Source: a virus
Lineage: Duplodnaviria > Caudoviricetes
Length of the DNA stretch: 30,615 bases
Direction: 5' to 3' (one strand)
IMG/VR virus record: IMGVR_UViG_3300030376_001642
Span: 1 to 30,615 of that record
Every line of letters starts with the position of its first letter. Within the stretch, counting starts at the first letter, position 1. The notes beneath the pieces were generated by a model. That model was not told where the DNA came from and ran no database searches. It saw only the letters and a program-made list of their open reading frames with translations. The position numbers and the translations under genes are program-made. Below are positions 4,038 to 27,100 of the stretch, piece by piece.

Positions 4038-4045
4038 TATTTATC
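4038..4045 (-). promoter_or_regulatory. T4-late-type promoter motif GATAAATA
   Basis: Intergenic, oriented toward 3977 and the long fibre gene. Confidence 0.7.
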
Positions 4046-4047
4046 TA

Positions 4048-5715
4048 TTATGTCTGGAATACACGATATTTCAGTTTAGATCTAACTATAACTGTACCTG
4101 TACCACCTGTTTGTTCGTGTAATTCTTTGCCGCCTTTATTTGCGATAAACTGTACACTACCACCACCACCAATGTTAGCACTTGAACCACCTTGTCCTGG
4201 ATCTCCTGGTCTTGCTAGATAACTGTTGTTACCTGGTCCTTGCGTGTTAAAGTTTAAGTGACCACCTGTCATTAGACTACTACCAGCAAGATAACTGTTA
4301 AAGTCAAAGCCTAGCAAGTCTAAGAATGTGGGTCCACCACCTCCTCCTCCGCCATAGTAGACTGTATTACCTGCTGTATTGAATATTGTGTAACTAACAC
4401 CATCGCCACCATCTCCACCAGTTTTAGCAGAACTGTAACCATTGAATACATTTATTATAGCATTAGCATTGCCTTTACCACCTGTAGCACTAGCACCACC
4501 GCCTCCACCACCGCCAAGTGGTCTACCAGCATTGAAATTGCCTACGCCTGGTCCACCATCTGTGAATGTTGTTGGTGCTGGTGGCCATATACCACCTGAA
4601 CTGAATGCTATTTTAGTGTAAGGTCCATCAGCATATACTTGATTAAATGTTTCTACGTTCAATCCACCTAAACCTGCTCTACCATGTCCAGCACCTTGTC
4701 CACCTTGTGAACCTAAACCACTAGCACTTACTGTAGCATTACCTGGTTTACCTTTAAAGTTTGAACTTAGATTGTTACTCCAACTAGAGAATCTACTTAT
4801 ATCTGATGCTTCACATGCCGCACCACCACCTGAACCACCGTCTCTACCGTCTATGGTATTAGATTGGAAACCTAATTGTTGTATTACATTGCCTGATATA
4901 GTTGTGTTAGGATTGTTAGGTGTACCTTCTCCATTACCTACTATAGGTCGAGCACAACCTCCACCACCGCCTCCATTAGCAGTTAGTGTGGTTAAACTAC
5001 TGACTATACTACTGTCTCTACCATCACTGTTAGCATAACTGTCAAAACTTCCACCTACACCTACTGTGACTGGTAAACTTGAGGTACTGTTAAGGTAAAC
5101 TAGGTCGTTGATGACTTCTCCACCACCACCTCCACCTACTGATGTTACACCTGCGTTAAACACATTGGCAATATTGGCGTTTAGTTGATGTCCTGTAGCA
5201 CCACCTCCACCTACTACAAGTGCTCTTACTCTGTTAAAGTCACTGTACGGTGTTAAACTTGTTATTGATAGGCTACCATTAGCACTGAATACTGTGATAT
5301 TGGCTTCACCATCTGCTGAAAGTGTGCCTGGTATTTGTGGGCCATCTATTTGTAATATATTCACTATACCTGAAGCGAATATAACTTTGCCTACATTTGA
5401 ATTAATTCTACCTGATATATTGATACCAGTTGCTGTGGCATTTTCACTGTCTAATTCTGCTACTACACTTGCTGTGGTACCTGTTATTGTTGCTGTACCA
5501 TTGGCATTTCCTATTAGATCACTGTTTGTAACGCCGCCTAATGACCAAAATAATGTAAGACCGTCAGCACGACTATCACTTAATGTTATATCGAATGTAA
5601 TTATGTTGTCAGCAGAACCACTCACAGTAGAAACTACTGTACCTGTTAGATCAGCAATATCTTTTTGTGGTATGCCTTTGTAATTTGTGTTGTAAAAGAA
5701 TTTATTATCAGCCAT
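4048..5715 (-). CDS. Glycine-rich domain tail fibre / receptor-binding protein
   Basis: VRALVVGGGG...GGGGGG, YYGGGGGG and C-terminal GTGTVIVR pattern typical of phage Gly-rich fibre domains. Lies next to a fibre chaperone. Confidence 0.75.
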   Translation of the reverse strand: MADNKFFYNTNYKGIPQKDIADLTGTVVSTVSGSADNIITFDITLSDSRADGLTLFWSLGGVTNSDLIGNANGTATITGTTASVVAELDSENATATGINISGRINSNVGKVIFASGIVNILQIDGPQIPGTLSADGEANITVFSANGSLSITSLTPYSDFNRVRALVVGGGGATGHQLNANIANVFNAGVTSVGGGGGGEVINDLVYLNSTSSLPVTVGVGGSFDSYANSDGRDSSIVSSLTTLTANGGGGGGCARPIVGNGEGTPNNPNTTISGNVIQQLGFQSNTIDGRDGGSGGGAACEASDISRFSSWSNNLSSNFKGKPGNATVSASGLGSQGGQGAGHGRAGLGGLNVETFNQVYADGPYTKIAFSSGGIWPPAPTTFTDGGPGVGNFNAGRPLGGGGGGGASATGGKGNANAIINVFNGYSSAKTGGDGGDGVSYTIFNTAGNTVYYGGGGGGGPTFLDLLGFDFNSYLAGSSLMTGGHLNFNTQGPGNNSYLARPGDPGQGGSSANIGGGGSVQFIANKGGKELHEQTGGTGTVIVRSKLKYRVFQT

Positions 5716-5723
5716 TATATCTC

Positions 5724-6128
5724 CTAACTTGGTTTTGTTGGATAAACTATATTTGCTACATCTGTAACGTTAGCATTAGTACTAGGTAAATCTCTAAGTG
5801 CTTGTCTATATGTTTGCCATTCTGCTTTTTTACTGTCTGATAATGGTGAATCAACACCTACTGTCCAATCAGTATTTTTTAAATGTACTGTACGATATTC
5901 TCTACAGTATTGTGGTATGTTTATTGTAGGTTCTGGTTTTGATTCTATCACATGTGGGTCTACACTTACATTTACACAATAGTCATCTATTGCGCCACCT
6001 AGGTCATGTTCTAGCACACTCAAATAAGGTCTACCTGTTAACATGCGTTCTAGACTGCTAGGTGCTATTTTTATATTTTGTTCTATATGCCCTGTTGTAT
6101 TGTTATAAATTACTACTTTGTTAATCAT
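5724..6128 (-). CDS. Tail fibre assembly chaperone
   Basis: C-terminal RxxxLxxTDW...D.PLS...W..YRQALRDLP motif of phage tail assembly chaperones. Confidence 0.85.
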   Translation of the reverse strand: MINKVVIYNNTTGHIEQNIKIAPSSLERMLTGRPYLSVLEHDLGGAIDDYCVNVSVDPHVIESKPEPTINIPQYCREYRTVHLKNTDWTVGVDSPLSDSKKAEWQTYRQALRDLPSTNANVTDVANIVYPTKPS

Positions 6129-8509
6129 TAGAATATGTCTCCTTTATTGATCTTAACGAAATCATATTTCATGCCAGTATAACCTATTTGTCCACTACTA
6201 TTAGGAGCCATTGTGTTTTTACCACGCAAGACTACATTTCCTGTACTTAAATCTGGTGATATAGTTATTTTTCTCACTGCCATCAATGTTTCAGGAATAT
6301 CACCACTATTGTTTTTTGATACACCAAATTCTTCACTAGTGGTAACACCTTGTATGTCTGTGAGATTAACTTTACCTCTAAATGTAAAGTCTGCTGTACC
6401 TGAGCCTGGAATTGCTCCTATAGGCGAACCACTGGCAACAAAACTGTAATCTCCAGGTTCTAAACCTTCTAATCCTAGTTTAAAGTCTAGTTCGCGAGGT
6501 GTAAATATATCTTTTACCACTGCTGTGTTTGACATTGATACATTACTTGCTGGTTGATCTTCAATTTGTGTACCTACTGATAAATTTCCTACATCACTTT
6601 TTCCTATCCTCCCTCCAAATTTATCTGGATCGTACATGTTTGCTACACCTGTAATATTACCTACAGGGTTAGTTATAGAACCTGAACTAACTGCGTCTAC
6701 TGTAAATGTAACATCATGTATTGTATCAATACCACCTAAATTACTACCGCTTAGAGTAACAACATCACCTATACTGAAATCTGGTGTACCAGATACCACA
6801 AAGATTGTTGAATATACATTTGGCAGTTGTTTGAATACTGTACAACTACAACTAGTTCCTGTGCCAGTTACACTTTTACTTGGTACACCTATAAATAAAT
6901 TATTAAATATTGATGGGGGTAGAATAGGGTCTTTAACTGGTGGTAAACTTGGTACACCATTACCCTCGTCTTCTTCTTCTGTTTCTGTTACTGTGGCTTC
7001 TATGTATACTTCTCCATTGTATTCTAACAATGTTAATTGACAAGTAATCATGCCTTCAGGCGTAAAGTTTTCTCTGCTACGCATTACCCAAAACAATTTA
7101 TTACTGAAACCATAAACACTATTAGTAAGTTTTACTACATCACCTGCGTCTATTTGTAGTGTACTGAAGTCGCCTTCTAGTGTTACTACCATGCCATATC
7201 TACTTTGATTGAGATTTATGTTTGCCAATTGTGCGCCGTGTATATTGTTATTCAACAATGCCGCTCTAAACGTAAGTTCATTATCAGGCTCACCGCTATT
7301 GCGTTCACTTGCTGGTGTGTTTACTACGACAGAATTCATTTGGTCTTTTCTGTTTTGATCTTGAAATTCTACTTTGACACTATTGTATAGACTGAATAAT
7401 TCTGTACTGCTTACACTCAGTTTGCTAACAACATTGTCGTCATTCAAAACAAAAGCATTTGCTTGTTCATTTGCTGGTATTTCTCTGTTAGGTACTGTTT
7501 TAAATTTGCCTTGTTTGCCATCAAATGTAAAGAATGTGTTACTGTTTTTACATATTCTATCGATATTGTCTAGTACAGTATCTGCTGTATTTAAGTAACC
7601 ATTAATTTGCCATCGATCAATAAAACTAGTAGCACCTCCATAGGCAGAATTTCTTGTAAATGGTATTTGCTCATCACAATAGCCTTTCATTGATGTATTG
7701 CTAGTACCTAATAAACTAGTAGTGTCAATATATGTATTTGAAAGTCCTGCGCCCCATTGTGTATTGTTTAGATACTTTTGTAGCACTTCTCCTGGATTGT
7801 GTATGCTGTTTGTTACATCAAAACTCATTGAACCTAAGCCTGTTAGTCCATTTTCAGCATCATAATCAAGTTCTATCATGGCAAACACCAAGTTTTCCAT
7901 AGTATAGTGTGTTGGTCCAAATACTTTCCAATGTGGCATCATGTTTGTTGCCGCAGTTGATGTTGTAGAACCACCTACTACAGGGAATATTTGATCAGCA
8001 CCATTTGTACTACCAGCATATACTCTAATTCTTATTTTGTCTGACCAATCATTTCTAGTTGTGGCATTAGGATCAGTGTAACTTGCTACTTTGTGTGCGT
8101 TAGCACCTGTACCAAAGTTTAATTTTGCGTCGTTGAAGAATATTTGATTGACTGTGTATGTAGCACCTTCAACGTATTCACTTAACACAATACAGTAACT
8201 CATTGTTTCATTTTGATTACTGATAGCAACATCTGTGATAGGGCCACTCATGAAGTTCTTTCCAAAAGCCACACCTATCCTGTTGTCTGTGTTAGGCGCA
8301 ACCTGTATTTTTACGCCAGGGTCAGGCCCCAGATCTGGTACATCAAATACACCCATTAAATTTGCTGTGGCAATAGCCAAACCACCAGCAACAATCCAAC
8401 CAGCCGCAGTTGCTACAGCAGTACCTATCAGAGTACTACCTAAGAAACCACCGCCTACAGTGATTAACCATCCTGTTACCGCACTTGCTATTGCTGAAAA
8501 AACTGCCAT
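6128..8509 (-). CDS. Tail tip / hub protein (lambda gpJ-like host specificity protein)
   Basis: 793 aa with a hydrophobic N-terminus, followed by IGVAFGKNF, YLNNTQWGAGL and QIDAGDVVKL motifs. Position downstream of the tape measure and distal tail genes. Confidence 0.8.
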   Translation of the reverse strand: MAVFSAIASAVTGWLITVGGGFLGSTLIGTAVATAAGWIVAGGLAIATANLMGVFDVPDLGPDPGVKIQVAPNTDNRIGVAFGKNFMSGPITDVAISNQNETMSYCIVLSEYVEGATYTVNQIFFNDAKLNFGTGANAHKVASYTDPNATTRNDWSDKIRIRVYAGSTNGADQIFPVVGGSTTSTAATNMMPHWKVFGPTHYTMENLVFAMIELDYDAENGLTGLGSMSFDVTNSIHNPGEVLQKYLNNTQWGAGLSNTYIDTTSLLGTSNTSMKGYCDEQIPFTRNSAYGGATSFIDRWQINGYLNTADTVLDNIDRICKNSNTFFTFDGKQGKFKTVPNREIPANEQANAFVLNDDNVVSKLSVSSTELFSLYNSVKVEFQDQNRKDQMNSVVVNTPASERNSGEPDNELTFRAALLNNNIHGAQLANINLNQSRYGMVVTLEGDFSTLQIDAGDVVKLTNSVYGFSNKLFWVMRSRENFTPEGMITCQLTLLEYNGEVYIEATVTETEEEDEGNGVPSLPPVKDPILPPSIFNNLFIGVPSKSVTGTGTSCSCTVFKQLPNVYSTIFVVSGTPDFSIGDVVTLSGSNLGGIDTIHDVTFTVDAVSSGSITNPVGNITGVANMYDPDKFGGRIGKSDVGNLSVGTQIEDQPASNVSMSNTAVVKDIFTPRELDFKLGLEGLEPGDYSFVASGSPIGAIPGSGTADFTFRGKVNLTDIQGVTTSEEFGVSKNNSGDIPETLMAVRKITISPDLSTGNVVLRGKNTMAPNSSGQIGYTGMKYDFVKINKGDIF

Positions 8510-8512
8510 TTG

Positions 8513-8965
8513 TTACTCCGCATAATATATAGTTTCAATTGGTTTGAAACCATATTTCTCTATTTTGATATCTGGTGATTGTTCCATCATTGTCATTGTG
8601 TAACCTGTTATCTTACCAGCATCTTTCATTGCTTTTGCTATACTTAAATATTTGAAAAACAATTTGCCACCTATTGTGCCTTCTCTGTATTTTGGTTCTA
8701 CCCACCATGCCGCTTCACGCATAACTGGTTTTACATTAGGTAACCATAAATCTGGTGTTGGTACACCTATAAAGAAACCTGCTGGTTCACCATTGTGTTC
8801 TGCGTACAACAATATACCTTGTTTGCTTATGCCGTACAATATTTGATCTATATAATCATTGTCGTACTTTGGGTTGTGTAAATAATCAACTGGCGCACTA
8901 TTGGCAAAGTTGATAAACATCTTTTTGATGTTTTTGAAATCTTTTGTGTCTGCTTGTTTAATCAT
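8513..8965 (-). CDS. GNAT-fold acetyltransferase-like protein
   Basis: N-terminal MIKQA, EAAWWVEPKYREGTIGGKL (acetyl-CoA motif A-like) and KYGFKPIE near the C-terminus. Confidence 0.7.
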   Translation of the reverse strand: MIKQADTKDFKNIKKMFINFANSAPVDYLHNPKYDNDYIDQILYGISKQGILLYAEHNGEPAGFFIGVPTPDLWLPNVKPVMREAAWWVEPKYREGTIGGKLFFKYLSIAKAMKDAGKITGYTMTMMEQSPDIKIEKYGFKPIETIYYAE

Positions 8966-8979
8966 ATCTTTATATCCTT

Positions 8980-9654
8980 TTATCTTTGTTCTCTTCTATC
9001 TCTACGGTCATCACGGTTACGGCCACCGCCACCGCCTCCTCCACCGCCACCACCGTAGCCACCTGAACCTCCAGTATATTCTTTACCAAAGTCAAATGTG
9101 GTGTTGAACAGTATAGGGACTCTGTTGAAACTCCTATCTGCTGGGTATAAACGTTTCCTGTCATCAGGATTTGTCTTTTGCCCGTTGATCTTGTTTGCTA
9201 ATACACTAACTAAACCACTTACTATAACTGTAACAGCATAGTCATTTGTTTTAGTTAATACATTAAGTTCTTCATTGATTGTGAAGTTGGTTATTACGCC
9301 ACTGTAACGTGTGTACACTTGGCCTGTAATAAGTTCTAAGTTACCTGTGTCCACAAAACCTCTGCGTAACACTACGTTACCACCTTTTACAGGCGAATTT
9401 AGTACTGCTTGTAGGTAATTTGCTTCAGCAGGTATACCTGTAAGTGATATTTGTATGTCACTTTCTGAATGTTTGAGGTCATCTGTAACTTCAGATACAT
9501 TCAACAAGGCACCAAGTTCAGTATAACTGTTTGAATCATATGTAATTGGTTTATAATTACTGCTGAGATAGTAAACATTACTACCTAACTGTAAATCTAT
9601 CAGTGTGATAGGTGCTATATTGTTACCTTGTACTGCTGTTATTGTTGTAGCCAT
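8980..9654 (-). CDS. Minor tail / baseplate hub protein (gpL/DUF2163-like)
   Basis: LIDLQLG..YYLS, Y.ELGALLNVSEV and IQISLTGIP motifs. Lies between the distal tail and tip genes. Confidence 0.65.
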   Translation of the reverse strand: MATTITAVQGNNIAPITLIDLQLGSNVYYLSSNYKPITYDSNSYTELGALLNVSEVTDDLKHSESDIQISLTGIPAEANYLQAVLNSPVKGGNVVLRRGFVDTGNLELITGQVYTRYSGVITNFTINEELNVLTKTNDYAVTVIVSGLVSVLANKINGQKTNPDDRKRLYPADRSFNRVPILFNTTFDFGKEYTGGSGGYGGGGGGGGGGGRNRDDRRDRREQR

Positions 9655-9661
9655 CTTTTAC

Positions 9662-10312
9662 CTATGTAATTACTTCATAAAACACAAAATTATCTTGAAA
9701 TACAAGAAAATCATGTGGTGCTATACCATAAAGTGGATTTTGTATGGCTTTTACACGCCATGTAACGTCTTTTCCAACATTTATGCCTTTACCACTCACT
9801 GTATAACCAGTTTGTGATAAGAAACCTCTGTGTATAGGTACTGTAACACTTGTGCCACTGTAGGCAACATCCGCTGTTACTGTATAAGGGTACCTATAAT
9901 TGTTATCTAATTGTATGTAATCACCTTTTTTGAATATATTTCCTGTGGGTGATCCTGATACACTGGTTGTATTCAACACAATTTCATTGCCACTAGCACT
10001 TGTTACTGTGACTTGTCCTATTTGTGAGGCACTTAGATTGCCTAGGTATTGTGTTATGTATGCTAAACCAGTATTTGTACTACCAATATTGATTTCTTCT
10101 TCTATGGTAGTGTCTAATCTGTCTAATTCTTCTACTAAATCTCTATTTGTGCTGTATTTTAGACCATCATTCATGCCTACTGTAAAACTGTAAACACTAG
10201 GAAGTCTTTCTGCTGTCTTTAGTATACCACTTCTACTAACTGTACTACTTGTGACTTTACGTCTGTTAACAGTTATAGCAGTTGCGTTGTTAATTATTGT
10301 TTGAAAACTCAT
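9662..10312 (-). CDS. Putative distal tail protein
   Basis: Immediately downstream of the tape measure gene (TAATG coupling), beta-rich, KKGDYIQL motif. Confidence 0.6.
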   Translation of the reverse strand: MSFQTIINNATAITVNRRKVTSSTVSRSGILKTAERLPSVYSFTVGMNDGLKYSTNRDLVEELDRLDTTIEEEINIGSTNTGLAYITQYLGNLSASQIGQVTVTSASGNEIVLNTTSVSGSPTGNIFKKGDYIQLDNNYRYPYTVTADVAYSGTSVTVPIHRGFLSQTGYTVSGKGINVGKDVTWRVKAIQNPLYGIAPHDFLVFQDNFVFYEVIT

Positions 10313-12600
10313 TATCCTGGTAACCTCCTTCTACCTGCTCTAGTTAAACTGTAGATAAATTCTGGATCTCTTGCTAATGCTGATTGGAAACTTTGTGTAT
10401 CTACTGCTGATATATTGTACACTATTGTTTGTCCACCACCTAATGCTCTAGCACTATCACTAGCACTCATTACACTTGCTGGTCCTGTGACAATTTCTGG
10501 TCCTGATTCACCTACAACACCAAACTTACCACTTGGTATATTACCACCGTTAGCAAAGAAGCCAGCAAATAGACTGCTAAACAATCCACCTGTTGGATCA
10601 AATAGTGCTAAGAATAATCTATTGGCAGCCATTTTAACTATTTCCATCATTAATGACTTGAATAGATCTTTAAAACTAAGTTTACCTGTTTCAGCAAACT
10701 TAACAAAAGCATCTTCCCAACCTTGTGTCATTGTATTGAATAAATCTGTACCAAATTTAGCATTGTTTTCTACTTCATCTTTGAATATAAGGAATGCGTC
10801 TTTGATACCTTGACCAAATTCGCGACTTTTAGCAATCAAGGCATCATAAGTTGCTAATTGTTTTTCAGCACCTTCTAAGAATAACTGATTTGCTTGTTCA
10901 TTGTCATCTATTCTGTCTTGAAGTACTGCTTTTGCTTGTTCTTTTTCAGCATCAGTTAGATCTGCTCGTTTTTTGCCTAGTTTTTCTGCTAGTTTTTCTT
11001 CTTCTGCCGCTTGGTCAATAATAAGTTGTATTCTTTCATTGGCTATGTTTCTGTATAAGCCTTGTGTTATTTGTAATCTTGCTCTTTCTTGTATAGAATT
11101 AGCATTCATGATATCACTTTGTTCTTGTACACTCATTAACAAGTCATGTGATGGTCCTAATGCTTGTTCATATATGCTTAAGAAACTTTCGCCTGCTCTT
11201 TGTACTGCTTGTTGAACTTTTAATTGTTCTTTAGTAAGTCTTATACGTTCATCGTATTCATCATTGATTTCTTGTTCACGTTTTCTTCTTTGTTCAGCAT
11301 CTATTTTGGTTAGATCAGCAAGATCTTGTAATGCTGATTTTCTATCTGATTCTATATCTGCTATAGCATTGAGTTCATCTTTTTGATTTTCTGTTGCTAA
11401 TAATAAATCATTTTGTAATGTTAATTGATCTCTAAACTCAGCACTATTAGATTGTAATTCATCTAGTTGTGATTTGAATTCTTCTGTTTGTCTTTCTAGT
11501 ATTCTTAATGATTCATCATTAAGTGTTTTTTCTTCTTTCTTCTTTTCAACTAAATCTGCTTCAGCATCAGCCATTTCCTTTGTACTGCCTTTTTGCTTGT
11601 CAACATTATCAACTATGTCTTCTACAGTTTCTCCTTGTTCATCAAACATAGCATTCATTACACCAAGTGTTACACCTGCCGCGGCTAATCCTGCGCCTAC
11701 TTTAAGTAAACCTACACCTGTAACTGCTTGTAACAATACAGCACTAGCGGCAGCGGCTTGGTTTGCGGCTCTAAATGCTTGTATGGCTTTAGTCACAGCA
11801 ACTATTTGATTTACTATTGCTACAGCAAATGCGGCTGCCAGTGCGGCTGCCACAATGTCTAGATTATCTGCTACCAATTTGAATGTTGCGGCTAATCCAC
11901 TGAATATACCTGTTTTTTCTTCTATTTTTCCTACAAGTATAGTGAATTCTGTTCTTATGCTTTCAAAACTTTCTGCTAAAGTTTGTGTTGTTAAGGCAAA
12001 TGTAGCATCAATTTCATCGCCTTGTTCTAGCAATGCGTTAGTGACAATTTTAGCAGTAAGTTTACCTTCACTTGCTAATTTTTTAAGTTCTCCACGTGGC
12101 TTACCTAGTGCTTTAGCCAGTCTATCCATGAGATCACTGTTTGTCTCATTGATACTTCTAAATTCATCACCACTTAACTTGCCTGATGCCATGGCCTGAC
12201 TGAACTGTAAGATAGCACTTGCTGATTCTTGTGCGCCAGCACCACTATTCTTTAGTGTTTTAGCAAATAGTTCTGTTACTCTGCTTGTTTCTGCTTGTGA
12301 TAAGCCTAAGTCTTCACTGGCTTTTGTTAAACGGAAGAATAAGTCTGCTGTACCACTAAGGTCACTACGAGTCTTTCTAGCAATATCAACAACAGCATCA
12401 AATCGTTTGCCTGCTTCTTCAGTACTGCCACTAACACTACGCAGTTTGTTTGTGATTTCTTGGAAATTGTTAGCAACATCAATTATGCCTTTTGCGGCGG
12501 CACCTGTTGCCAGTGCCTTAAGAGCATTTCCTACATTAGCAACGCCCTTTTCTGCTTTTCTTGTATCTAGTACTAACTCTGCTTTTATAGACCTAGCCAT
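10312..12600 (-). CDS. Tail tape measure protein
   Basis: AILQFSQAMASGKLSGDEFRSINE tape-measure motif, Ala-rich hydrophobic segment, long coiled coil, lambda-like C-terminus (GKLSFKDL; FANGG...VVGESGPE). Confidence 0.95.
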   Translation of the reverse strand: MARSIKAELVLDTRKAEKGVANVGNALKALATGAAAKGIIDVANNFQEITNKLRSVSGSTEEAGKRFDAVVDIARKTRSDLSGTADLFFRLTKASEDLGLSQAETSRVTELFAKTLKNSGAGAQESASAILQFSQAMASGKLSGDEFRSINETNSDLMDRLAKALGKPRGELKKLASEGKLTAKIVTNALLEQGDEIDATFALTTQTLAESFESIRTEFTILVGKIEEKTGIFSGLAATFKLVADNLDIVAAALAAAFAVAIVNQIVAVTKAIQAFRAANQAAAASAVLLQAVTGVGLLKVGAGLAAAGVTLGVMNAMFDEQGETVEDIVDNVDKQKGSTKEMADAEADLVEKKKEEKTLNDESLRILERQTEEFKSQLDELQSNSAEFRDQLTLQNDLLLATENQKDELNAIADIESDRKSALQDLADLTKIDAEQRRKREQEINDEYDERIRLTKEQLKVQQAVQRAGESFLSIYEQALGPSHDLLMSVQEQSDIMNANSIQERARLQITQGLYRNIANERIQLIIDQAAEEEKLAEKLGKKRADLTDAEKEQAKAVLQDRIDDNEQANQLFLEGAEKQLATYDALIAKSREFGQGIKDAFLIFKDEVENNAKFGTDLFNTMTQGWEDAFVKFAETGKLSFKDLFKSLMMEIVKMAANRLFLALFDPTGGLFSSLFAGFFANGGNIPSGKFGVVGESGPEIVTGPASVMSASDSARALGGGQTIVYNISAVDTQSFQSALARDPEFIYSLTRAGRRRLPG

Positions 12601-12893
12601 TATATTCTCCTGAACTCTTTGTCAAGTTGACTTTGGAGATGTTTAAATGAAGGTTCTGTCATTCCACGTGGTGCTTGTTTGCTCCATCCTTCATCTAATC
12701 TTGCCGCATAAGGGTAATCTGCTATAATTTCTAAGTTTCTTCTATCGAAATCAGTGTTACTTCTGGCATTACCACTTCTTTTAGGTGTTATACGTCTAAA
12801 ATATCTGTAAGTTGAGTTCATAGAATCGCTGACAGCCTTATTGATGTCTTTTTGTAACAATCCTAAATCTCTTCTACTTACTTTTATTCCCAC
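12600..12893 (-). CDS. HK97 gp10-like tail completion / neck protein
   Basis: TPKRSGNAR...YAARLDEGWSKQAPRGM motif; small basic protein. Confidence 0.7.
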   Translation of the reverse strand: MGIKVSRRDLGLLQKDINKAVSDSMNSTYRYFRRITPKRSGNARSNTDFDRRNLEIIADYPYAARLDEGWSKQAPRGMTEPSFKHLQSQLDKEFRRI

Positions 12894-13145
12894 GTGTTCT
12901 CTCCATTATCGCTTGTAAATCTGTTTGATCATATTGATCAGTTATGTCTTTCATGGTTTGTGTACCATTTTGTTTCTTAATCTCGCGAGTCTTGTGTGTC
13001 AATGCTATGTCGTATGTGCGTAAATCAAAGGTTGTACCCCTTGCTAACACTTCAGAAGGTAATAACCCGTATCGTTCACCTAGTGCGTCTAACATTAAGG
13101 CGTTAGTAAATTCAGCACTACCTTCTTCAAATGAACTACTGGTTA
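12874..13145 (-). CDS. Tail assembly chaperone, -1 frameshift extension (gpT-like part of gpGT)
   Basis: The -1 frame from GGGAAAG is open (GKVTSSSFEEGSAEFTNAL) into MLDALGERYGLLPSEVL. Confidence 0.8.
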
Positions 13146-13445
13146 CTTTCCCAGTTGTTCTACTACTTTATTTACACATTTCAGTAAGAGTTGGTTAGGT
13201 AATATATGTCCATCAGTCATAACTGGATTACCTTGGTCATCAAGAATCATATCACTACACATAGTGATTAATTGTGGATATTGATCTGGTTTTTGTGTGC
13301 TACTAGCAAATTCGACAAATGTATCTAAGGGTTGTTTGTCCCATACATAAAATTCTAGTGCTTCTTCGTATTGACTGACAGTTTCTTCATCATCTAAAAC
13401 TATCTTTACTAATTGTGGTTTTGTTGCGAGTTCTTTTAACTTCAT
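13143..13445 (-). CDS. Tail assembly chaperone (gpG-like)
   Basis: 100-aa acidic protein ending in the slippery site; AGGAG RBS; synteny. Confidence 0.8.
   Translation of the reverse strand: MKLKELATKPQLVKIVLDDEETVSQYEEALEFYVWDKQPLDTFVEFASSTQKPDQYPQLITMCSDMILDDQGNPVMTDGHILPNQLLLKCVNKVVEQLGK
13146..13152 (-). other. Programmed -1 ribosomal frameshift slippery site GGGAAAG
   Basis: CTG GGA AAG TAA at the end of the gpG-like ORF. Same heptamer as lambda G-T, located between the tail tube and tape measure genes. Confidence 0.85.
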
Positions 13446-13448
13446 AAC

Positions 13449-13625
13449 TTACTCCTTTATATCTCTTTTCTTTAAATTGTGAATAACACTTAAACAAAAT
13501 GCTACTCTGTTTGAGGCCTTATCAGCATCTCCTCTTAGACACCTAATTTCATTCTGTGTCTTCGCTAATTCCGTCTCCAACGATTGGATCATCTCCATCG
13601 TCGTCTTTGTGTCGTATATCTTCAT
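13449..13625 (-). CDS. Small coiled-coil hypothetical protein (58 aa), not in ORF track
   Basis: MKIYDTKTTMEMIQSLETELAKTQNEIRCLRGDADKASNRVAFCLSVIHNLKKRDIKE. Fills the gap and stops 3 nt before the next ATG. Confidence 0.65.
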   Translation of the reverse strand: MKIYDTKTTMEMIQSLETELAKTQNEIRCLRGDADKASNRVAFCLSVIHNLKKRDIKE

Positions 13626-13809
13626 TACTATTTACCTTTGTTTTTTGTTTTTGTTGTTTTTTGCTATCAGGAAGTGTTATGCCGTTGTCTTTGGCATATT
13701 CATCCATGTCTACAGTGACTATTTTTCCATCTACTTCAATACGAATATCGCGTGTAGGTTTGGTCCAGTTACCATCTGCGTCAAAGTTTCTTAACCATTT
13801 ATGTTCCAT
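13549..13809 (-). CDS. Hypothetical protein
   Basis: ATG with AAGGAG RBS; acidic disordered C-terminus overlapping the next ORF. Confidence 0.7.
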   Translation of the reverse strand: MEHKWLRNFDADGNWTKPTRDIRIEVDGKIVTVDMDEYAKDNGITLPDSKKQQKQKTKVNSNEDIRHKDDDGDDPIVGDGISEDTE

Positions 13810-13826
13810 TGTTTCTCCTTATAAGA

Positions 13827-17166: not shown

Positions 17167-18885
17167 TTATAAAGAGTTAGAACTGTAAGTCTGATTAATC
17201 AGTGCTTTCATTCTTTCTCTTATCTTCTCTTTTAATTCTTGTTCGAATCCACGATCTTCTTCAAAATCAACACCTGGATTCGCACGTTCTAGTGCCTGTT
17301 CATATTCTAGGTGTGTAGCGAATGGCATGTAAATTATAGTACCGTCTTCATTTTGATGACTATGTGATCCACTTCCGCCTAAACTTACTGCTTTTGCTTC
17401 TGCTTCTGCTTCAGTGGCATACTCATCTGCCACAAACTCTGTGACGCCAGTTGCGAACTTGTTTTCATATGTTTCAAGCATACCCATTATGCCTTCTAGT
17501 TCTTTGATTTCTTGTTCTAAGCCTCTTTGTGAGAAAGTTTTATTGTAACTTACACTAAAGTCTTCTGGTAAAGGCTTATCCATCCAATCAAACCATATTT
17601 TCCATAGATTATATTCAGCATTTTCCATTGCTGTGGCTTTACGCCTAATCATGGCTTCAAGTTTGCTGTCAAACATTTCTATTTGAACTCCACTCCTACT
17701 AGCCTTGATAAGTTCATCTGATCTTACCATGGCAACCTGATTCATTTTTTCAATTAATTGATTTACATATTCTCTTAATTGAACCATGCTGTCTAATGGT
17801 GGTGCTCTAAATTCAAATACATAGGCTGGCTCGCCTTGTAAACTTGAATTTACTCTTATAACACTACCTGGTTCTGCTCCTATACTGTTGTCGTTGAGAT
17901 CACTTGTTTCCGTGTCTACTACTGTTACAGGGTGCGAACCATAACTTTGTATAGCATATAGATCACCATATGCCGCATATATGTTCTTTTGTATTCCTGC
18001 TATGTCAAATATGATACTATGTCCTACACCATTGTGTATCTTAGTACCTGTGTATACTGGTATACATGGTACATAGCCTAATTCATTTTCTTGTCTTACC
18101 ACATAATATCCATCGCCACCTTCTATGTTTTCCGCATCTATATATTGGCTGATGTCAAATTCATCTTCATCTGTGTCTTCTTTGATTAAGAAGTATGTGT
18201 CGATGTTTTCTGGTGTTATATATTGATATACATCAAATTCTGGTTCTGATGCTGTTTTGATTACTATCTTTTTCAATACCAAGTCGCCGCTCATGTCATA
18301 AGCAAACTGCCAGTTAGTTACATCTAGTGGAGTGTGGTATCTCCAACGTGGTAAATCACTGCCTACTGGTTTTATACAACTGACCCAACAAATACCAAAT
18401 ATAGTACTCATCACGTCTACGTGCGAGAAGAATTCGTTAAGTGAATTTTGTTCACCATCACAGTTCTGTGAGAACTCTTCTACTTCTGGGGTTAATGGTA
18501 ACACTCGATATGGTGTGTTTTTCATTAAGATAGCATTGTATTCTTGTACATACAATCTAGTGTAAGGCAGTACTGGTACATTGTGTAACTTTTCATGATA
18601 GAAGTTACTTGAGTAATCACCGCCGTTATTAGCCGCTTGTGGCGAGTTTACACTAACTGCGCCTTTATAGATACCTTGTGTTACACCGTTATCATCAACG
18701 TCATATGTGTTGATTACTTCGCTTGGTGTACTGTTATCTGAATCAAATTGCTTGAGGTATTCGCCCATTCTGTATTCTGGGCCACCGTAATATGATTTAA
18801 TGGCTAAACGCCAGTCATCTTGGTATCGTGAGTATAGTTCGTGTGCGGATACTACGAACTGAAATTCGTCAAATGGTTTAGCCAT
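17167..18885 (-). CDS. Portal protein
   Basis: 572 aa with H..Y...W...SYYGG.EY N-terminus, NELGYVPCIPV and SRSGV motifs; lies between terminase and scaffold. Confidence 0.9.
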   Translation of the reverse strand: MAKPFDEFQFVVSAHELYSRYQDDWRLAIKSYYGGPEYRMGEYLKQFDSDNSTPSEVINTYDVDDNGVTQGIYKGAVSVNSPQAANNGGDYSSNFYHEKLHNVPVLPYTRLYVQEYNAILMKNTPYRVLPLTPEVEEFSQNCDGEQNSLNEFFSHVDVMSTIFGICWVSCIKPVGSDLPRWRYHTPLDVTNWQFAYDMSGDLVLKKIVIKTASEPEFDVYQYITPENIDTYFLIKEDTDEDEFDISQYIDAENIEGGDGYYVVRQENELGYVPCIPVYTGTKIHNGVGHSIIFDIAGIQKNIYAAYGDLYAIQSYGSHPVTVVDTETSDLNDNSIGAEPGSVIRVNSSLQGEPAYVFEFRAPPLDSMVQLREYVNQLIEKMNQVAMVRSDELIKASRSGVQIEMFDSKLEAMIRRKATAMENAEYNLWKIWFDWMDKPLPEDFSVSYNKTFSQRGLEQEIKELEGIMGMLETYENKFATGVTEFVADEYATEAEAEAKAVSLGGSGSHSHQNEDGTIIYMPFATHLEYEQALERANPGVDFEEDRGFEQELKEKIRERMKALINQTYSSNSL

Positions 18886-18910: not shown

Positions 18911-18918
18911 TATTTATC
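18911..18918 (-). promoter_or_regulatory. T4-late-type promoter motif GATAAATA
   Basis: 25 nt upstream of the portal ATG, at the head of the structural operon. Confidence 0.75.
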
Positions 18919-19506: not shown

Positions 19507-19514
19507 TATTTATC
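19507..19514 (-). promoter_or_regulatory. T4-late-type promoter motif GATAAATA (leftward of divergent pair)
   Basis: GATAAATA-CTTGT-ATG. Confidence 0.75.
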
Positions 19515-19562: not shown

Positions 19563-19570
19563 GATAAATA
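19563..19570 (+). promoter_or_regulatory. T4-late-type promoter motif GATAAATA (rightward of divergent pair)
   Basis: GATAAATA-TATTAT-ATG. The motif flips strand exactly where the genes flip strand. Confidence 0.75.
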
Positions 19571-19576: not shown

Positions 19577-19963
19577 ATGATAAGAATTAATTTCAAAGAA
19601 AGGTGGGGTTATACATGTAATCAATTAGCGGCCATGGAAGGCGTTACACCTGAAGCAATAAGAATGCGTGTGCGTAACTATGGTACACCATTTCAAAGAC
19701 GCAAAAAACTAACAAAGTGGGAAAAGAAGTATGGCAAAACACTAGGGCAAATAGCACTAGATTTAGGCCTACACCCACAAACTGTTGCTAGGCGTGATAG
19801 ACTATTTGGTGATGCTTATGCTGAATCTAAATGGAAAAGACCTACGTTGCGTGGTGCTATACTAAATGAACGTGGCGAACATTGGACTGAAAATACCAAA
19901 ATGGGTTATGTTAAAGTTCAATCAACGTATATGGATCAGTATAATGAGAACAAGAAGGCCTAG
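19577..19963 (+). CDS. Putative DNA-binding protein with two HTH-like motifs
   Basis: TCNQLAAMEGVTPEAIRMR and TLGQIALDLGLHPQTVARR; basic. Confidence 0.7.
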   Translation: MIRINFKERWGYTCNQLAAMEGVTPEAIRMRVRNYGTPFQRRKKLTKWEKKYGKTLGQIALDLGLHPQTVARRDRLFGDAYAESKWKRPTLRGAILNERGEHWTENTKMGYVKVQSTYMDQYNENKKA

Positions 19964-21237: not shown

Positions 21238-21868
21238 GAAAGTACTCCCTTTGATGTTCTATGGTGCTGTAAGCACAAAGATGGTTCATAACAACATTGC
21301 CTTCACCACGTCCTCTGCGTTTTATTTCACACCATATTTTATTCAGCAGTTCGTCTTCTTTAACGACACTATTTAGGCGTGTCATCATATTGTATATCAT
21401 GTCGCCATTAGGTATGTCTGCTGTGATCATACCTCCCCAGGTTTTTGCTTTTCGCTCTTTGGTTAATTTGCTAGGGTCTAAATTACCATTTTCTACATTC
21501 GCTATTATGGTTAGATGTAAGTTGGTGCCATTAACACATTGTACTATGTTCATGGCTACAGCACGTCTGTGAGAATCACCTATGTCCACGTAGGTGTCAC
21601 AAATGCTTAATAACCATCTTACATCTAAATTTTCTAACAATACATCAGTATACTCTTCAACTAATCTGTTGAATTCATAATGATGTCTGTGAAGATTTGG
21701 ATTTCTGCGTAAGTGTACTATATGCGATGCTACTTTATAACAAACTTGTGGTTTGCCAATAAATTCTCTACGCAATTCTTTTATGTTTACACTTATATCT
21801 TTGTGCCTGTTTAGATTGTGAGCAATTTCACTTTCATGTCCTGGCACTAGTTCTAGCATTGGATCCAT
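21221..21868 (-). CDS. Hypothetical helical protein (215 aa)
   Basis: TAATG-coupled to terL; AAGGAG RBS; LRREFIG...RWLLSICDT motif. Confidence 0.75.
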   Translation of the reverse strand: MDPMLELVPGHESEIAHNLNRHKDISVNIKELRREFIGKPQVCYKVASHIVHLRRNPNLHRHHYEFNRLVEEYTDVLLENLDVRWLLSICDTYVDIGDSHRRAVAMNIVQCVNGTNLHLTIIANVENGNLDPSKLTKERKAKTWGGMITADIPNGDMIYNMMTRLNSVVKEDELLNKIWCEIKRRGRGEGNVVMNHLCAYSTIEHQREYFHENDK

Positions 21869-23073
21869 TATAATCTCCTTGTTAAAGGTTTAAGTTTCTT
21901 AGTACTTGTATTCTTTATAGCAAAGTGTTGATACACAAAATATCCTAGAGAATCATTAAGGTGGTCCAATCCTTGATCCTTTGTTGGTTGACGTGTACCT
22001 TCGCGGTATGTGTGTTTTATAAGACAGTTCTTAAGACTTCTACACTTTGGGTCTATGAATAGTTTATTGTGTTCAAAAGCCGCATTCACACTGGCTATAC
22101 GATCTATAACAGGTGGGTTACCTGGTTGTACCATTAGTTTAAATCCTGCGTTTTGTAGTATTTGGTGATCACTTATACCTGAATTGGTTGTGCGTTTTAT
22201 ACCACTACTATCTGGATATGCTACAATTCTGTTTTGTGGATATCTGGCTTTTATCTCCTGTACAAGTTCATTGGTGTTTGAACCATATATTTCTATTTCA
22301 TCAATTACCCAACCTATACCATTCTTTACTATGGCTATTGTAGCACTCATTGGATCAATATTGAAGTCACAGCCTACATGTAGTACATCATCTTTGGTTA
22401 TAGGTCCTGGATATGCTTTGATGTTCTGTTCTGCGAAAGCATAGTATATAACACCAGCATAACTGACAAATTGTGCTTCATATTCTTGTTCAAATGTTCT
22501 ACTGTCTAGATCTTGTTGTGCTTGTTCTACTTCTTCTTGTGGCACAAAGCCACCGTCTAGTGTAGTAAACTGATAACTGCTGTAGTTAGCCTTTTCACCT
22601 TCACACCACAGTTCATAAAACCAGTTTCTGCCTTTTGGTGAACTAATGAATAGTGCGTGTCCGCCAGTATCTGATAAGGTGGGGCGTAGCACTGAAAACC
22701 AAACATCTGGCTTCATATCAGCACACTCATCTAACACTATGAAGTTGTATTTGGCACCTCTTAGTGCGTCATAGTTCTCACTGCTACGCAGAGTTATTGT
22801 GCTACTGTTTACTAAGGTGATTTGTAGTTCTGATTCGTTGATCTTCTTTGCCCAGTTCTTTTCAATCATCATGCCTTTGAGATCATTCCACCAAATGTTC
22901 TTACATTGTTTATATGTTGGGGCAACGGCAAGTATGCGTTGTTCTGGGAATCTGGCAAACTTTGCCATTTCGTTCATTGCTAAGTATGATTTGCCAAAAC
23001 GTCTACCCGCGGCAAGTATGCGAAATCTGTTTGTATCATCAGATACTTTCTTTTGAACTTTGCTTAACTTCAT
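21868..23073 (-). CDS. terL: Terminase large subunit
   Basis: Q motif (LSKVQ), Walker A AAGRRFGKS, Walker B IVLDE, SSPKG coupling motif, nuclease GCDFN and DHLNDSLGY. Start at 23073 preferred; upstream alternatives exist. Confidence 0.95.
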   Translation of the reverse strand: MKLSKVQKKVSDDTNRFRILAAGRRFGKSYLAMNEMAKFARFPEQRILAVAPTYKQCKNIWWNDLKGMMIEKNWAKKINESELQITLVNSSTITLRSSENYDALRGAKYNFIVLDECADMKPDVWFSVLRPTLSDTGGHALFISSPKGRNWFYELWCEGEKANYSSYQFTTLDGGFVPQEEVEQAQQDLDSRTFEQEYEAQFVSYAGVIYYAFAEQNIKAYPGPITKDDVLHVGCDFNIDPMSATIAIVKNGIGWVIDEIEIYGSNTNELVQEIKARYPQNRIVAYPDSSGIKRTTNSGISDHQILQNAGFKLMVQPGNPPVIDRIASVNAAFEHNKLFIDPKCRSLKNCLIKHTYREGTRQPTKDQGLDHLNDSLGYFVYQHFAIKNTSTKKLKPLTRRL

Positions 23074-23178
23074 ATCTTTAAAGTGTTGAAACGGTACTAG
23101 GACATTATTGTCCATGAACACACAACAAACAGTTTCCTCCTATATGAGTAAAAGTTTATAAGTACCGTTCAACATACT

Positions 23179-23186
23179 TATTTATC
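23179..23186 (-). promoter_or_regulatory. T4-late-type promoter motif GATAAATA upstream of terL
   Basis: Within the 16-mer AGATAAATAAGTATGT, which is identical at 26360..26375. Confidence 0.7.
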
Positions 23187-23187: not shown

Positions 23188-23655
23188 CTACTCATCTTCT
23201 TGGTCATCTATCCATGGCAGAGTTTGATTGCTTTCTGAACTAACTGGATTATCTGTCCAATTGAGTAAGTTCTTTGATGTCCATACAAGTATAGTTGGAT
23301 TTTGTTTTACTATAGCACTTTCTAGCATGGCTTCCATTAGACGTTGTTTGGTTACTTGTCTGCTTTTTTCTACCACACTTCTAAAGTTGTCTCTGAATGT
23401 GGTTTCTTTACAGCCAAAGAAGTCTGCCATGTCTTTGTATGTTAAGTGTAGACTTGCTAACTTTTTAACTTCTTCTATGCTGATAATGGCACGGTTATCA
23501 CCTTGCCCTATAATGATACCTTTTACTGTCTTTTCGCCATATTTTCTGCGTGGGGTTACACCATATTCTGGTGATGCTCCATCAGGTATCTCTATGTAAT
23601 GTTCTTTTTGTTCGTTTTCCACGGATTGTGGAGAATTGGTGTCTTCTTTTGACAT
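23188..23655 (-). CDS. terS: Terminase small subunit
   Basis: HTH LTYKDMADFFGCKETTF and NPTILVWTSKNLLNWTD motif; directly upstream of terL. Confidence 0.8.
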   Translation of the reverse strand: MSKEDTNSPQSVENEQKEHYIEIPDGASPEYGVTPRRKYGEKTVKGIIIGQGDNRAIISIEEVKKLASLHLTYKDMADFFGCKETTFRDNFRSVVEKSRQVTKQRLMEAMLESAIVKQNPTILVWTSKNLLNWTDNPVSSESNQTLPWIDDQEDE

Positions 23656-23693: not shown

Positions 23694-23701
23694 TATTTAT
23701 C
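23694..23701 (-). promoter_or_regulatory. T4-late-type promoter motif GATAAATA upstream of terS
   Basis: Immediately after a terminator, 38 nt before the terS ATG. Confidence 0.75.
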
Positions 23702-23705
23702 ACAT

Positions 23706-23750
23706 AAAAGAAAACCCCCTAGAAAGATGAGTCAAACTAGGGGGGTTTCA
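23706..23750 (-). terminator. Rho-independent terminator
   Basis: CCCCCTAG...CTAGGGGG stem followed by TTTTCTTTT. Confidence 0.75.
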
Positions 23751-24086
23751 ATTACCGATTAGTGTATAACTCCTTATACACATATATTTTTAGGAAAAAT
23801 TAAAATGTCAGTTGCGATATTTAATCAAAAAGAAAAAATATGTTTTCTGATGGTACTAGCGAATGCTGTACCTTTTAATTTATGTTGTCCGTAATTTAAA
23901 TTTATTAGGAGATTTAAGCACTAATATTAGTGTCTTAGATCAATATGTTATTATCAACTACTATGCTTTATCGATATAAGTGTTTGGCAACATTCATTAT
24001 GATAAATTGAGAACTATCTATGAGCAAATGCTCTTATCTAGTGAACGTGTCTCGAATGATCCACGTGTTATAACATTACGTCCAAC
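23706..24086 (-). ncRNA. Candidate ~380-nt non-coding RNA
   Basis: No long ORF; bounded by GATAAATA (24092..24099) and a terminator; many short hairpins. Confidence 0.4.
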
Positions 24087-24090: not shown

Positions 24091-24555
24091 TTATTTATCT
24101 TCTTTGAACAGGTCTGGATCATCTTGTGGCAGTTCTTCGCCTAAGAATGTGCCCAGCATCTGTTCAAACTCTTCTGGTTTGAATCTGTCTGTGATTTTGA
24201 ACTTTGATAGTTCTTTTACTACTCTGTGTTTGCCTTTTAGTGGCAATATGTCAAATGTACCAGTTATTTCCAGTATTTGATTCTTTTCTTTAACTGCTTC
24301 TACTACAGGTCTCCAACGTGGCCATGCTTTAGAACTTTTACCTGGATATGTTTCTAGTATTTCAAAGTCTGTGCTACCATTAGCATATACTGTACACATA
24401 CACAACTTTACAGTGAAGAACTTGCCTATTTGACTAGCCCAGTTACCTGTGAATGCTTTCTTTTCGTTCAGTACGTCAATGACTTGTAGTGTAGTTGTTA
24501 CAGGTTTACTGTCTATGTACCTGTTTTGACCTCTACCGTGACTTTTATTATACAT
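24091..24555 (-). CDS. Hypothetical protein (beta-rich, acidic tail; possibly OB-fold/SSB-like)
   Basis: AGGAG RBS; C-terminus EELPQDDPDLFKEDK. The fold guess is weak. Confidence 0.6.
   Translation of the reverse strand: MYNKSHGRGQNRYIDSKPVTTTLQVIDVLNEKKAFTGNWASQIGKFFTVKLCMCTVYANGSTDFEILETYPGKSSKAWPRWRPVVEAVKEKNQILEITGTFDILPLKGKHRVVKELSKFKITDRFKPEEFEQMLGTFLGEELPQDDPDLFKEDK
24092..24099 (-). promoter_or_regulatory. GATAAATA motif overlapping a stop codon and pointing into the non-coding region
   Basis: GAA GAT AAA TAA; could also be a coding coincidence. Confidence 0.5.
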
Positions 24556-25526: not shown

Positions 25527-25534
25527 TATTTATC
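25527..25534 (-). promoter_or_regulatory. T4-late-type promoter motif GATAAATA
   Basis: Intergenic, oriented toward 25479. Confidence 0.7.
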
Positions 25535-25735: not shown

Positions 25736-25939
25736 CTAACATAACTTGCTACCATTAACATAACGAACTGTTTCGTGTACTTCTGTGTCTCTTTCTGCTT
25801 CACGTCTTTGCCATTCTGCTCTACACATCACATAACCTTTTTCGCCTTCAGCAAACTCTCTCAATACCCACTGAATATAATCATCTGGTATTTGATATAG
25901 GTGTACATCAGCATACATTCCAAATCCCAACTTAGCCAT
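25736..25939 (-). CDS. DUF3820 / ExoX C-terminal-like small protein
   Basis: LGFGMYADVHLYQIPDDYIQW matches the (M/L)xFGKYxG..L..IPxxY..W pattern. Confidence 0.65.
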   Translation of the reverse strand: MAKLGFGMYADVHLYQIPDDYIQWVLREFAEGEKGYVMCRAEWQRREAERDTEVHETVRYVNGSKLC

Positions 25940-26337
25940 TATATTTCCTTGTGTAAACTGCTGAGTTTGTTTAGTTGATGTAGTAATGCCAAGTTATCTT
26001 CATTAAAGTCTAACAGTATTGCTTTCTTTACTAACTCTACACTTTTGAATATACAGTTAACAGTTTTATGTGGTATTGGCTCATTGAGATCTATATCTGT
26101 TAACACATGTGCTAAGAAACTGTATAGATTATGATCTTTTGTTACTATTTTTGGTATGTATACTTTTTCACCATCAGCAAACTTGTATACTTTTTTACAG
26201 CGAAATAAGTTATCTATTTCATTGCTCATAATACTGGCTTTTTGTGTGATTTTTAGTATCTCTAGTAAACTGCTGTTTAATGAGTCTTTTATAAGTGATT
26301 GATTTGCTGGTCTCAACTTCACATATTTTGTTTTCAT
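25939..26337 (-). CDS. Hypothetical protein
   Basis: AGGAGG RBS; TAATG-coupled to the downstream gene. Confidence 0.75.
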   Translation of the reverse strand: MKTKYVKLRPANQSLIKDSLNSSLLEILKITQKASIMSNEIDNLFRCKKVYKFADGEKVYIPKIVTKDHNLYSFLAHVLTDIDLNEPIPHKTVNCIFKSVELVKKAILLDFNEDNLALLHQLNKLSSLHKEI

Positions 26338-26366: not shown

Positions 26367-26374
26367 TATTTATC
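26367..26374 (-). promoter_or_regulatory. T4-late-type promoter motif GATAAATA
   Basis: Intergenic, 29 nt upstream of ATG 26337. Confidence 0.7.
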
Positions 26375-26643: not shown

Positions 26644-26672
26644 AGTATACTAGTTTTTGTGACCATTGTCAA
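26644..26672 (-). promoter_or_regulatory. Near-consensus sigma70 promoter TTGACA-N17-TATACT
   Basis: -35 at 26667..26672, -10 at 26644..26649, 17-nt spacer. Confidence 0.8.
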
Positions 26673-26682: not shown

Positions 26683-26712
26683 AAAAAAATACCCCAATCA
26701 TCATTGAGGTAC
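26683..26712 (-). terminator. Rho-independent terminator insulating the sigma70 promoter
   Basis: GTACCTCAAT-GATG-ATTGGGGTAT followed by a T run. Confidence 0.7.
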
Positions 26713-26781
26713 TTTCATTCTAGTTTTTACATCTAGAGTAGGTTTGTTAGGACAAGCCATTAATACTTAGTGAAAAATATG

Positions 26782-27087
26782 TTATAACATTGATTTCTTG
26801 GCAATTCGTTTTACACACTTCCATTCTTTATTGCGATTAGTTCTAGCATAAAATGTTTTTTCAAACAGATGTGTGTCCACAATCATGCCTTCATAATAAA
26901 ACACACGCCATTGTAAGTATAGGGGTTTGTGATTTACATAATGTGTGAGTACATCAGCATACTTGCGTGATGTTTTGAATTCGTCTAAATGATATCTAAC
27001 TTGATAGTTAAAATAGTTGTCTGCCTTGATCCCAAAAAGTTTGTCTTCTACTTTTTTTATTAGTTTTTTTGCTTCTGTGTCTGTCAT
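26782..27087 (-). CDS. Hypothetical basic protein (likely leaderless)
   Basis: ATG 5 nt downstream of TATAAATA. Confidence 0.7.
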   Translation of the reverse strand: MTDTEAKKLIKKVEDKLFGIKADNYFNYQVRYHLDEFKTSRKYADVLTHYVNHKPLYLQWRVFYYEGMIVDTHLFEKTFYARTNRNKEWKCVKRIAKKSML

Positions 27088-27092
27088 TTAAG

Positions 27093-27100
27093 TATTTATA
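27093..27100 (-). promoter_or_regulatory. Exact T4 late promoter consensus TATAAATA
   Basis: TATAAATA-CTTAA-ATG. Confidence 0.75.

Follow-up and report, generated by a model that had tools for sequence, protein, structure and literature searches.

Putative ATAAATA late promoters without a recognisable reader in a long-tailed marine phage: a candidate satellite virus of T4-like phages

The 30,615-nucleotide (nt) IMG/VR record IMGVR_UViG_3300030376_001642, here called the window and taken at its full length, is a tailed virus (Caudoviricetes) whose operons are headed by the box ATAAATA, the word of T4-type late promoters. The box and its placement at operon heads are real, recur throughout the virus family and are not explained by the phage's own recognisable genes. 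We consider the window probably to be a long-tailed satellite virus of T4-like phages, its late boxes being read by the gp55 of a co-infecting phage. A little less firmly, we favour the view that the widespread marine and freshwater tailed family to which it belongs consists of bacterial virophages, which make their own virions and outsource the late switch, and mostly also replication and lysis, to T4-like phages. Dependence on a helper appears likely from the gene content: because the late word is present and neither a reader nor DNA-copying or wall-breaking genes are recognised, the phage likely multiplies only when a T4-like phage infects the same cell.

Placement and geometry of the box

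An earlier note on this DNA had listed ten (G/T)ATAAATA sites, and a motif scan of the window returned every one of them at the coordinate and on the strand given (Table 1), together with an eleventh copy left out of that list, an antisense TATAAATA within a coding gene at 6890 (+). KATAAATA occurs 11 times in the window against 6.3 expected, a number reached in 3 of 100 shuffles, and ATAAATA 12 times against 13.8; the whole-window count, near chance and not significant alone, was rejected as evidence, and it is because of its placement, not its number, that the box departs from chance. GATAAATA is found nine times in sense and never in antisense orientation, with eight copies at most 100 nt from a start codon. 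The enrichment on which the earlier proposal depended is borne out: 9 of the 12 ATAAATA copies lie upstream of starts, where 8% of positions qualify (P = 1.7e-8), and ATAAATA is the first-ranked upstream 7-mer once ribosome-binding-site words are excluded. The box does occupy most of the larger gene gaps, as had been claimed (8 of the 14 of at least 25 nt and 6 of the 7 of at least 67 nt, the seventh carrying a sigma-70 promoter), and it changes strand with the genes, the + strand site at 19563 heading a + strand operon. The 14.8-kb head-neck-tail operon is headed by the box at 18911. Two details of the earlier account need correcting: intergenic DNA measures about 1.5 kb, not ~2 kb, and the site at 24092 precedes a 387-nt structured stretch free of open reading frames (ORFs) and no gene. 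The mRNA of ORF 26782-27087 is predicted to be leaderless, because no ribosome-binding site lies between box and ATG.

We analysed 22 records of about 21-33 kb, namely the window, 20 further IMG/VR records and phage DSL-LC06; the scripts read only the first 20 kb of four of them, and two pairs (G004/G013 and G010/G011) are near-duplicates. The capsid protein finds 53 loci in IMG/VR, a terminase search adds a second, far subfamily and DSL-LC06, and capsids within the family are as little as 28% identical. The box, counted as upstream if within 130 nt of a gene start, precedes the small terminase subunit gene (TerS) in 16 of 17 records, the tail gene (window 3471-4016) in 15 of 15 and the portal gene in 16 of 21, the remaining five carrying it before the scaffold gene (5/5). 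It precedes the large terminase subunit gene (TerL) in 3 of 17 and never the capsid (0/22), tape measure (0/20) or hub (0/19) gene. Of the copies of the box, 76 of 132 and 24 of 35 are intergenic, whereas the highest figures among six rearranged versions used as controls are 34 of 160 and 10 of 26, and ATAAATA is among the top seven upstream 7-mers in 20 of 23 records, the three misses holding 1-5 copies. It also ranks first or second among upstream words in two stretches of the gp55-bearing phage HTVC008M, and shows no upstream enrichment in the cultured phages HTVC111P (2/34) and Vibrio phage 1.157.O (1/11) or in seven other terminase- or small-protein-linked loci; the stretch fetched from phage CBB (60-110 kb, 1 of 4 copies upstream) is an uninformative region. 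The first base of the box is mostly G in the near subfamily (G 54, T 8, A 8, C 6) and evenly distributed in the far one, and its flanks are not conserved across the family. No non-virion gene family occurs in all records (best 13-14 of 22), whereas the box does.

That such small gene sets are complete genomes is shown by the 47.9-kb record G004, a concatemer of a 27.7-kb unit, and by the PCR-checked DSL-LC06. The two G004 copies differ in tape-measure length (756 vs 629 amino acids, aa) and are therefore probably two strains. The leaders of the tail gene (3977-4045) and of TerS (23655-23701) hold short sequence conserved across distant relatives, which suggests RNA or packaging signals.

A T4 late promoter is an element resembling a -10 box, with nothing conserved at -35; gp55 reads it, gp33 and gp45 activate it, and full activation requires the clamp to be loaded on DNA (PMC7892883). 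The late words are TATAAATA in T4, NATAAATA with a variable first base in S-PM2 and other cyanomyoviruses, and ATAAATA in the jumbo phage CBB, which has a gp55-like sigma (PMC7892883, PMC2984593, PMC5259590). The box of the window's family is the same word with the same variable first base, lacks a -35 element, shares the predicted 5-nt start geometry of HTVC008M and stands before structural operons. In a table of 91 sites no base exceeds 0.56 between -45 and -2. A pyrimidine-purine step lies 5 nt after the box at 50 of 90 sites in the family, most other gaps giving 17-33%, and at 20 of 30 in HTVC008M, where eight ATGs also stand at gap 5; of the window's ATGs, two follow the box at gap 5 and one at gap 6. 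Near ~80 marine gp55 genes ATAAATA occurs 171 times in sense and 12 times in antisense orientation, the first base of the sense copies being A 68, G 53, T 39 and C 11. Position, conserved operon heads, the missing -35 element and the predicted 5-nt start geometry support the interpretation that the box behaves like a T4-type late promoter. A sigma-28 promoter and an archaeal TATA box were both rejected, because upstream CC enrichment is absent and the predicted start geometry is 5 nt, and also because bacterial sigma-70 promoters and ribosome-binding sites are present.

Gene content and the search for a reader

The window genome appears complete. Its ends overlap by 349 nt at 97.7% identity, giving a circle of ~30.27 kb, CheckV completeness is 100%, and closing the circle joins both pieces of the tail fibre and gives the gene order seen in relatives. 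Closure is based on this overlap and gene order; contigs aligned at the right end carry alleles that match the window's first two bases and do not span the junction. The eight mismatches of the overlap cluster within 26 nt of the tail-fibre gene, and clustered allele differences in the fibre tip (window 29831-30543 and 254-279) occur between the ends and also in public runs. The best-matching public runs are marine metagenomes, the best of which may be the sample that the window came from; no RNA run is among the matches listed. PHROGs and Pfam searches of 45 window ORFs recognised terminase, portal, capsid, neck, tape measure, distal tail, hub and fibres, as well as an acetyltransferase, a methyltransferase, a helix-turn-helix (HTH) protein and a weak holin; an NCBIfam scan of 26 ORFs added nothing. 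By these searches the window encodes its own virion proteins, with a full head and tail module and a long non-contractile tail.

No ORF resembling gp55, gp33 or gp45 had been noticed earlier, and profile searches agree: gp55 (phrog_234) was found in 0 of 22 records, gp45 (phrog_223) in 0 of 17 and gp33 (PF16805) in 0 of 17, with HTVC008M as positive control in each search. Sigma region 2 was found in none of 21 records (one being the unrelated G017). An 81-sequence gp55 profile reached at best E 0.016, to a 43-aa frame, against 9,745 six-frame ORFs, and a probability of 7% against 126 clusters. The expectation that a fold search would reveal no sigma factor held for the two most widespread families, which were modelled without any sigma match, and extends to those two alone.

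The larger of the candidate families, that of ORF 25939-26337, occurs in 13 of 22 records and in 116 remote clusters (window member to profile, E 2.5e-14), often behind a box; it is absent from nine records, including G005 (100% complete), G020 (91%) and G021 (97%), all of which keep the box. The model, made from the G004 member rather than the window's own, is a helical bundle with a small sheet (model confidence, pLDDT, 94). As a sigma factor the family was rejected: Foldseek returned nothing from the PDB and only uncharacterised phage proteins from a viral library, and the best structural matches were generic helical bundles (Z up to 7.9). Rsd ranked 49th with Z 5.0 and was not taken as evidence; no PHROG family is common to more than one of 123 members, and sequence matches in the PDB include none below E 0.03. 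All 21 metagenome loci of the family (also L086:6626-7039) fall in this phage family. The protein at 19577-19963, two HTH units related to the DNA-binding tail of an HNH endonuclease, is absent from 9 of 22 records and was likewise rejected, its model (pLDDT 68) giving weak HTH-type matches only and being not sigma-like. ORF 24919-25479 (186 aa) belongs to no family and has two close homologues, and its Atlas matches are all below 0.85.

No polymerase, helicase, primase, integrase, endolysin or sigma factor was found among the 45 window ORFs (PHROGs, Pfam), nor among 107 accessory proteins of relatives (at least 75 aa, one per cluster; four listed rows were left out, including a ParB-like protein scanned separately), among which methyltransferases and glycosyltransferases, HNH and endonuclease VII genes as well as tail proteins were recognised. 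Helper dependence fits because replication and endolysin genes were not found. A search of GTDB genomes with the capsid protein, for prophages or hosts, gave no match, and the only capsid match in cultured collections is an assembled genome. Members of the small 19280-19501 family are also encoded by fragments of very large phages rich in the box, in which gp55 was not found, and a 71-aa protein of relatives is shared with HTVC008M at 51%; as a link to a helper, these shared small proteins are suggestive only. ORFs 19093-19302 and 19280-19501 are two tandem copies of one small protein family (also in L128, L136 and L140). In the helper search the 391-aa and 555-aa accessory proteins had no match, and the tail-fibre tip matched DSL-LC06 and two Curtobacterium phages weakly, and no others.

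Early promoters, non-coding stretches and other features

The earlier note had the phage transcribed by its helper. This may hold for the late boxes, which behave like T4-type late promoters, but not for the whole genome, as a predicted near-consensus sigma-70 promoter heads the early operon (Table 1); with early genes on sigma-70 promoters, only the late programme would therefore be borrowed. Relatives carry several sigma-70 promoters, and 8 of 106 consensus matches hold a box in or beside the spacer. The spacers often hold a TAAAT core (GATAAATG, CTAAATA, GTAAATA; G003, G004, G006, G007, G011, G014, G015 and DSL-LC06).

The stretch at 23705-24086 is probably a late non-coding RNA next to TerS: its conserved closing stem has its first base at the predicted +1 (24086), and a comparison of four close sequences shows two compensated pairs in it. 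The loop of the GC-rich hairpin at its end (ACTCATCTTT in most) stays conserved even in sequences that otherwise differ (window, G001, G004, G009, G011; L001, L002, L004), and no Rfam family was found in window 23600-27500. A second non-coding stretch, G004:20746-21479, also present in G009 and G011, starts with GATAAGTA and ends near the palindrome GGTCTWWAGACC, which the window has at ~25643-25655, upstream of ORF 24919-25479; from its sequence it is possibly an origin or a second RNA.

Table 1. Boxes, genes and other features of the window
Feature	Coordinates	Strand	Remarks
GATAAATA	4038..4045	-	upstream of tail gene 3471-4016 and tail fibre
GATAAATA	18911..18918	-	upstream of portal; 16/16 near-subfamily records
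GATAAATA	19507..19514	-	5 nt before ATG of ORF 19280-19501
GATAAATA	19563..19570	+	6 nt before ATG of + strand operon
GATAAATA	23179..23186	-	upstream of TerL
GATAAATA	23694..23701	-	upstream of TerS
GATAAATA	24092..24099	-	overlaps last codons of ORF 24091-24555; heads non-coding stretch
GATAAATA	25527..25534	-	upstream of ORF 24919-25479
GATAAATA	26367..26374	-	upstream of ORF 25939-26337
TATAAATA	27093..27100	-	5 nt before ATG of ORF 26782-27087
Collagen-repeat tail fibre	2..3460, continuing over the circle junction into 29705-30615	-	
Tail gene	3471-4016	-	box upstream at 4038
Neck, tail, tape measure (10312-12600), distal tail, hub and fibre-assembly genes	4048..15327	-	PHROGs/Pfam
Portal, scaffold (by position), major capsid protein	15337..18885	-	PHROGs/Pfam
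Tandem HTH protein	19577..19963	+	13/22 records
TerL	21868..23094	-	PHROGs/Pfam
TerS	23188..23655	-	phrog_309, E 1e-4
Probable structured non-coding RNA	23705..24086	-	z -7.05; conserved 5' stem; GC-rich terminator-like hairpin end
132-aa protein, most widespread non-virion family	25939..26337	-	13/22 records, 116 remote relatives
Putative sigma-70 promoter TTGACA-17-TATACT (11/12)	26644..26672	-	predicted to head early operon 26641-24091
Holin-like protein (weak)	27165..27419	-	phrog_689 E 0.003, PF10779 E 0.002

Satellite, autonomous phage or resident reader

If the window is a satellite of T4-like phages, it would enter the cell by its own tail, in a virion it makes itself, and host sigma-70 would express a few small early genes. 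With a T4-like phage in the same cell, the gp55 of that phage would turn on the packaging, head and tail operons and the structured RNA, late transcription starting 5 nt after the box, and the satellite would probably be copied by the helper's replication proteins and released by its lysin. Where a box stands in or next to a sigma-70 promoter, it may keep early genes on after the helper takes the polymerase, and the T4 requirement for a clamp on DNA would fit a satellite genome copied by the helper replisome.

Several observations weigh against this reading. The pyrimidine-purine step has a second peak at gap 7 (45 of 90 family sites). Some ten of the window's small ORFs belong to no family, and folds cover two families only, so that a very diverged reader is possible; ORF 25939-26337 lies behind both a sigma-70 promoter and a box, as a self-activating factor would. 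The presence of sigma-70 promoters means that the phage may be able to express some genes alone. A 460-600-aa protein, found in 5 of 23 records and not in the window (L080:3122-4513 of G001, where it occupies the place of window ORF 24919-25479; also G007, G012, G016 and G019), has no Pfam, PHROG, NCBIfam or PDB match and has conserved motifs that we take to resemble those of a family A polymerase; not all members, therefore, may need helper replication. Many records are fragments, and absences of shared genes are consequently in part gaps. The searches made identified no specific helper or host, the box being shared with T4-like phages as a class, and genes shared with T4-like phages are few. 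Nor does an integrase or a clear plasmid module explain how a free long-tailed particle meets its helper.

The foremost alternative, which we consider unlikely yet deserving of attention, is an autonomous phage in which a diverged small early protein, for example of the 25939-26337 family, serves as its own late sigma factor or activator, and replication relies on host proteins and an unrecognised initiator. A real sigma-70 early operon, a full virion with its own fibres, the holin-like gene, several ORFs that stay dark and the size, diversity and frequent position behind a box of the 25939-26337 family (116 clusters) all speak for such a factor. That family is nevertheless missing from nine of the 22 records, which keep the box, and matches no sigma factor in PDB or viral libraries, the equally patchy tandem HTH protein is not sigma-like, and any factor of this kind would have to converge on the same seven bases and the same spacing as gp55.

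It is improbable that the reader is resident in the cell, either as an alternative host sigma or through a gp55-like gene carried by a prophage or a persistent phage, a case in which lytic co-infection would not be needed. In its favour, the search of GTDB genomes gave no capsid relative from which the host's sigma factors might be read, and phrog_234 has weak matches (E up to 1) in 8 of the 14 bacteria and archaea used as controls. However, a +1 at the 5-nt gap puts ATAAAT at -12 to -7, without the -11A that sigma-70 needs, no conserved upstream box exists of the sort that most alternative sigmas have, the same word and geometry mark gp55-bearing phages, and the missing replication and endolysin genes would be left unexplained. 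More improbable still is that the box is no promoter at all and either serves as an operator or results from stop codons and from the AT-richness of the gaps. Control words rich in A and T likewise show some preference for intergenic DNA, boxes lie inside the sigma-70 spacers of several relatives (the 8 of 106 matches above), and at 3 of the window's 10 sites the box overlaps a stop codon (its leading G closes a TAG codon at 4038 and at 18911); but the other seven touch none, the sense orientation is strict, the box is conserved at operon heads without a sigma-70 promoter, its surroundings show a start-site geometry, and the pattern is absent in related autonomous phages.

Among known systems, P4, phage-inducible chromosomal islands (PICI), PICI-like elements (PLE) and capsid-forming PICI (cf-PICI) depend on a helper phage, as we propose for the window, and P2 Ogr activates P4 late promoters, a precedent for a borrowed transcription factor. 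Unlike the window, which makes its own virion and in which no integrase or primase was found, these elements integrate, run their own replication and use the capsids or tails of a helper. The earlier note had set this self-made virion apart from the P4, PICI and PLE satellites, but it is not without precedent: MiniFlayer and MulchRoom (PMC10690885) and Ando (PMC13587820; overview in PMC12822802) are satellite viruses that encode a capsid of their own and lack replication genes, though without a full tail module, and Phanie is a further capsid-forming satellite named there (PMC10690885, PMC13587820). As far as these accounts go, the MiniFlayer type resembles the window in having its own capsid, portal and terminase and no recognisable replication genes, MiniFlayer also lacking an integrase; it differs in its size of 13-17 kb, in using helper tails or having short fibres only, and in that its dependence was shown by co-isolation. 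The window's family has a whole tail module, and its proposed link to a helper is the promoter, a kind of sharing not met in the accessible parts of the satellite papers. Our literature search, which covered neither subscription journals nor supplements, turned up no satellite of bacteria that uses a helper's sigma factor or an ATAAATA motif.

The T4-type phages carry a gp55 gene of their own (in CBB, gp33 and gp45 are not recognised), whereas none was detected in the window's family, which also differs in its size of 28-33 kb and its long non-contractile tail; the overlap of early and late promoters resembles that described for RB49, S-PM2 and Syn9 (PMC2984593). The nearest parallel to the proposed strategy lies in eukaryotes. 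Sputnik and mavirus carry their helpers' late promoters upstream of genes, and like the window's family these virophages make their own virion, mavirus keeping its own DNA polymerase as some members here may; the differences are their eukaryotic hosts, the giant-virus factories and a helper that gives the whole RNA polymerase (PMC6723459). Helper identity and inhibition have been shown for virophages (PMC6723459), and the window's family is known here from sequence alone. DSL-LC06 ('Nanhuiviridae', proposed; OR003941) shares virion core clusters and the 25939-26337 family with the window, carries the box at 7 of 8 upstream sites, is annotated with neither a replication nor a lysin gene, and belongs to a distant subfamily (terminase 44%); the main text of the paper describing it, as available, mentions no promoter, satellite, helper or sigma (PMC10611076).

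T4-like phages are major killers of ocean bacteria. Were an unrecognised factor of the phage's own to read the T4 late word, it would be of a new kind, and that too would be new. If the window and its relatives are instead satellites of T4-like phages, some of the 'lytic phages' in metagenome catalogues would be hyperparasites acting through a T4-like sigma, a promoter word without a sigma gene would make hidden satellites easy to spot from sequence and help to match them with their helpers, and the virophage strategy would extend to bacteria.

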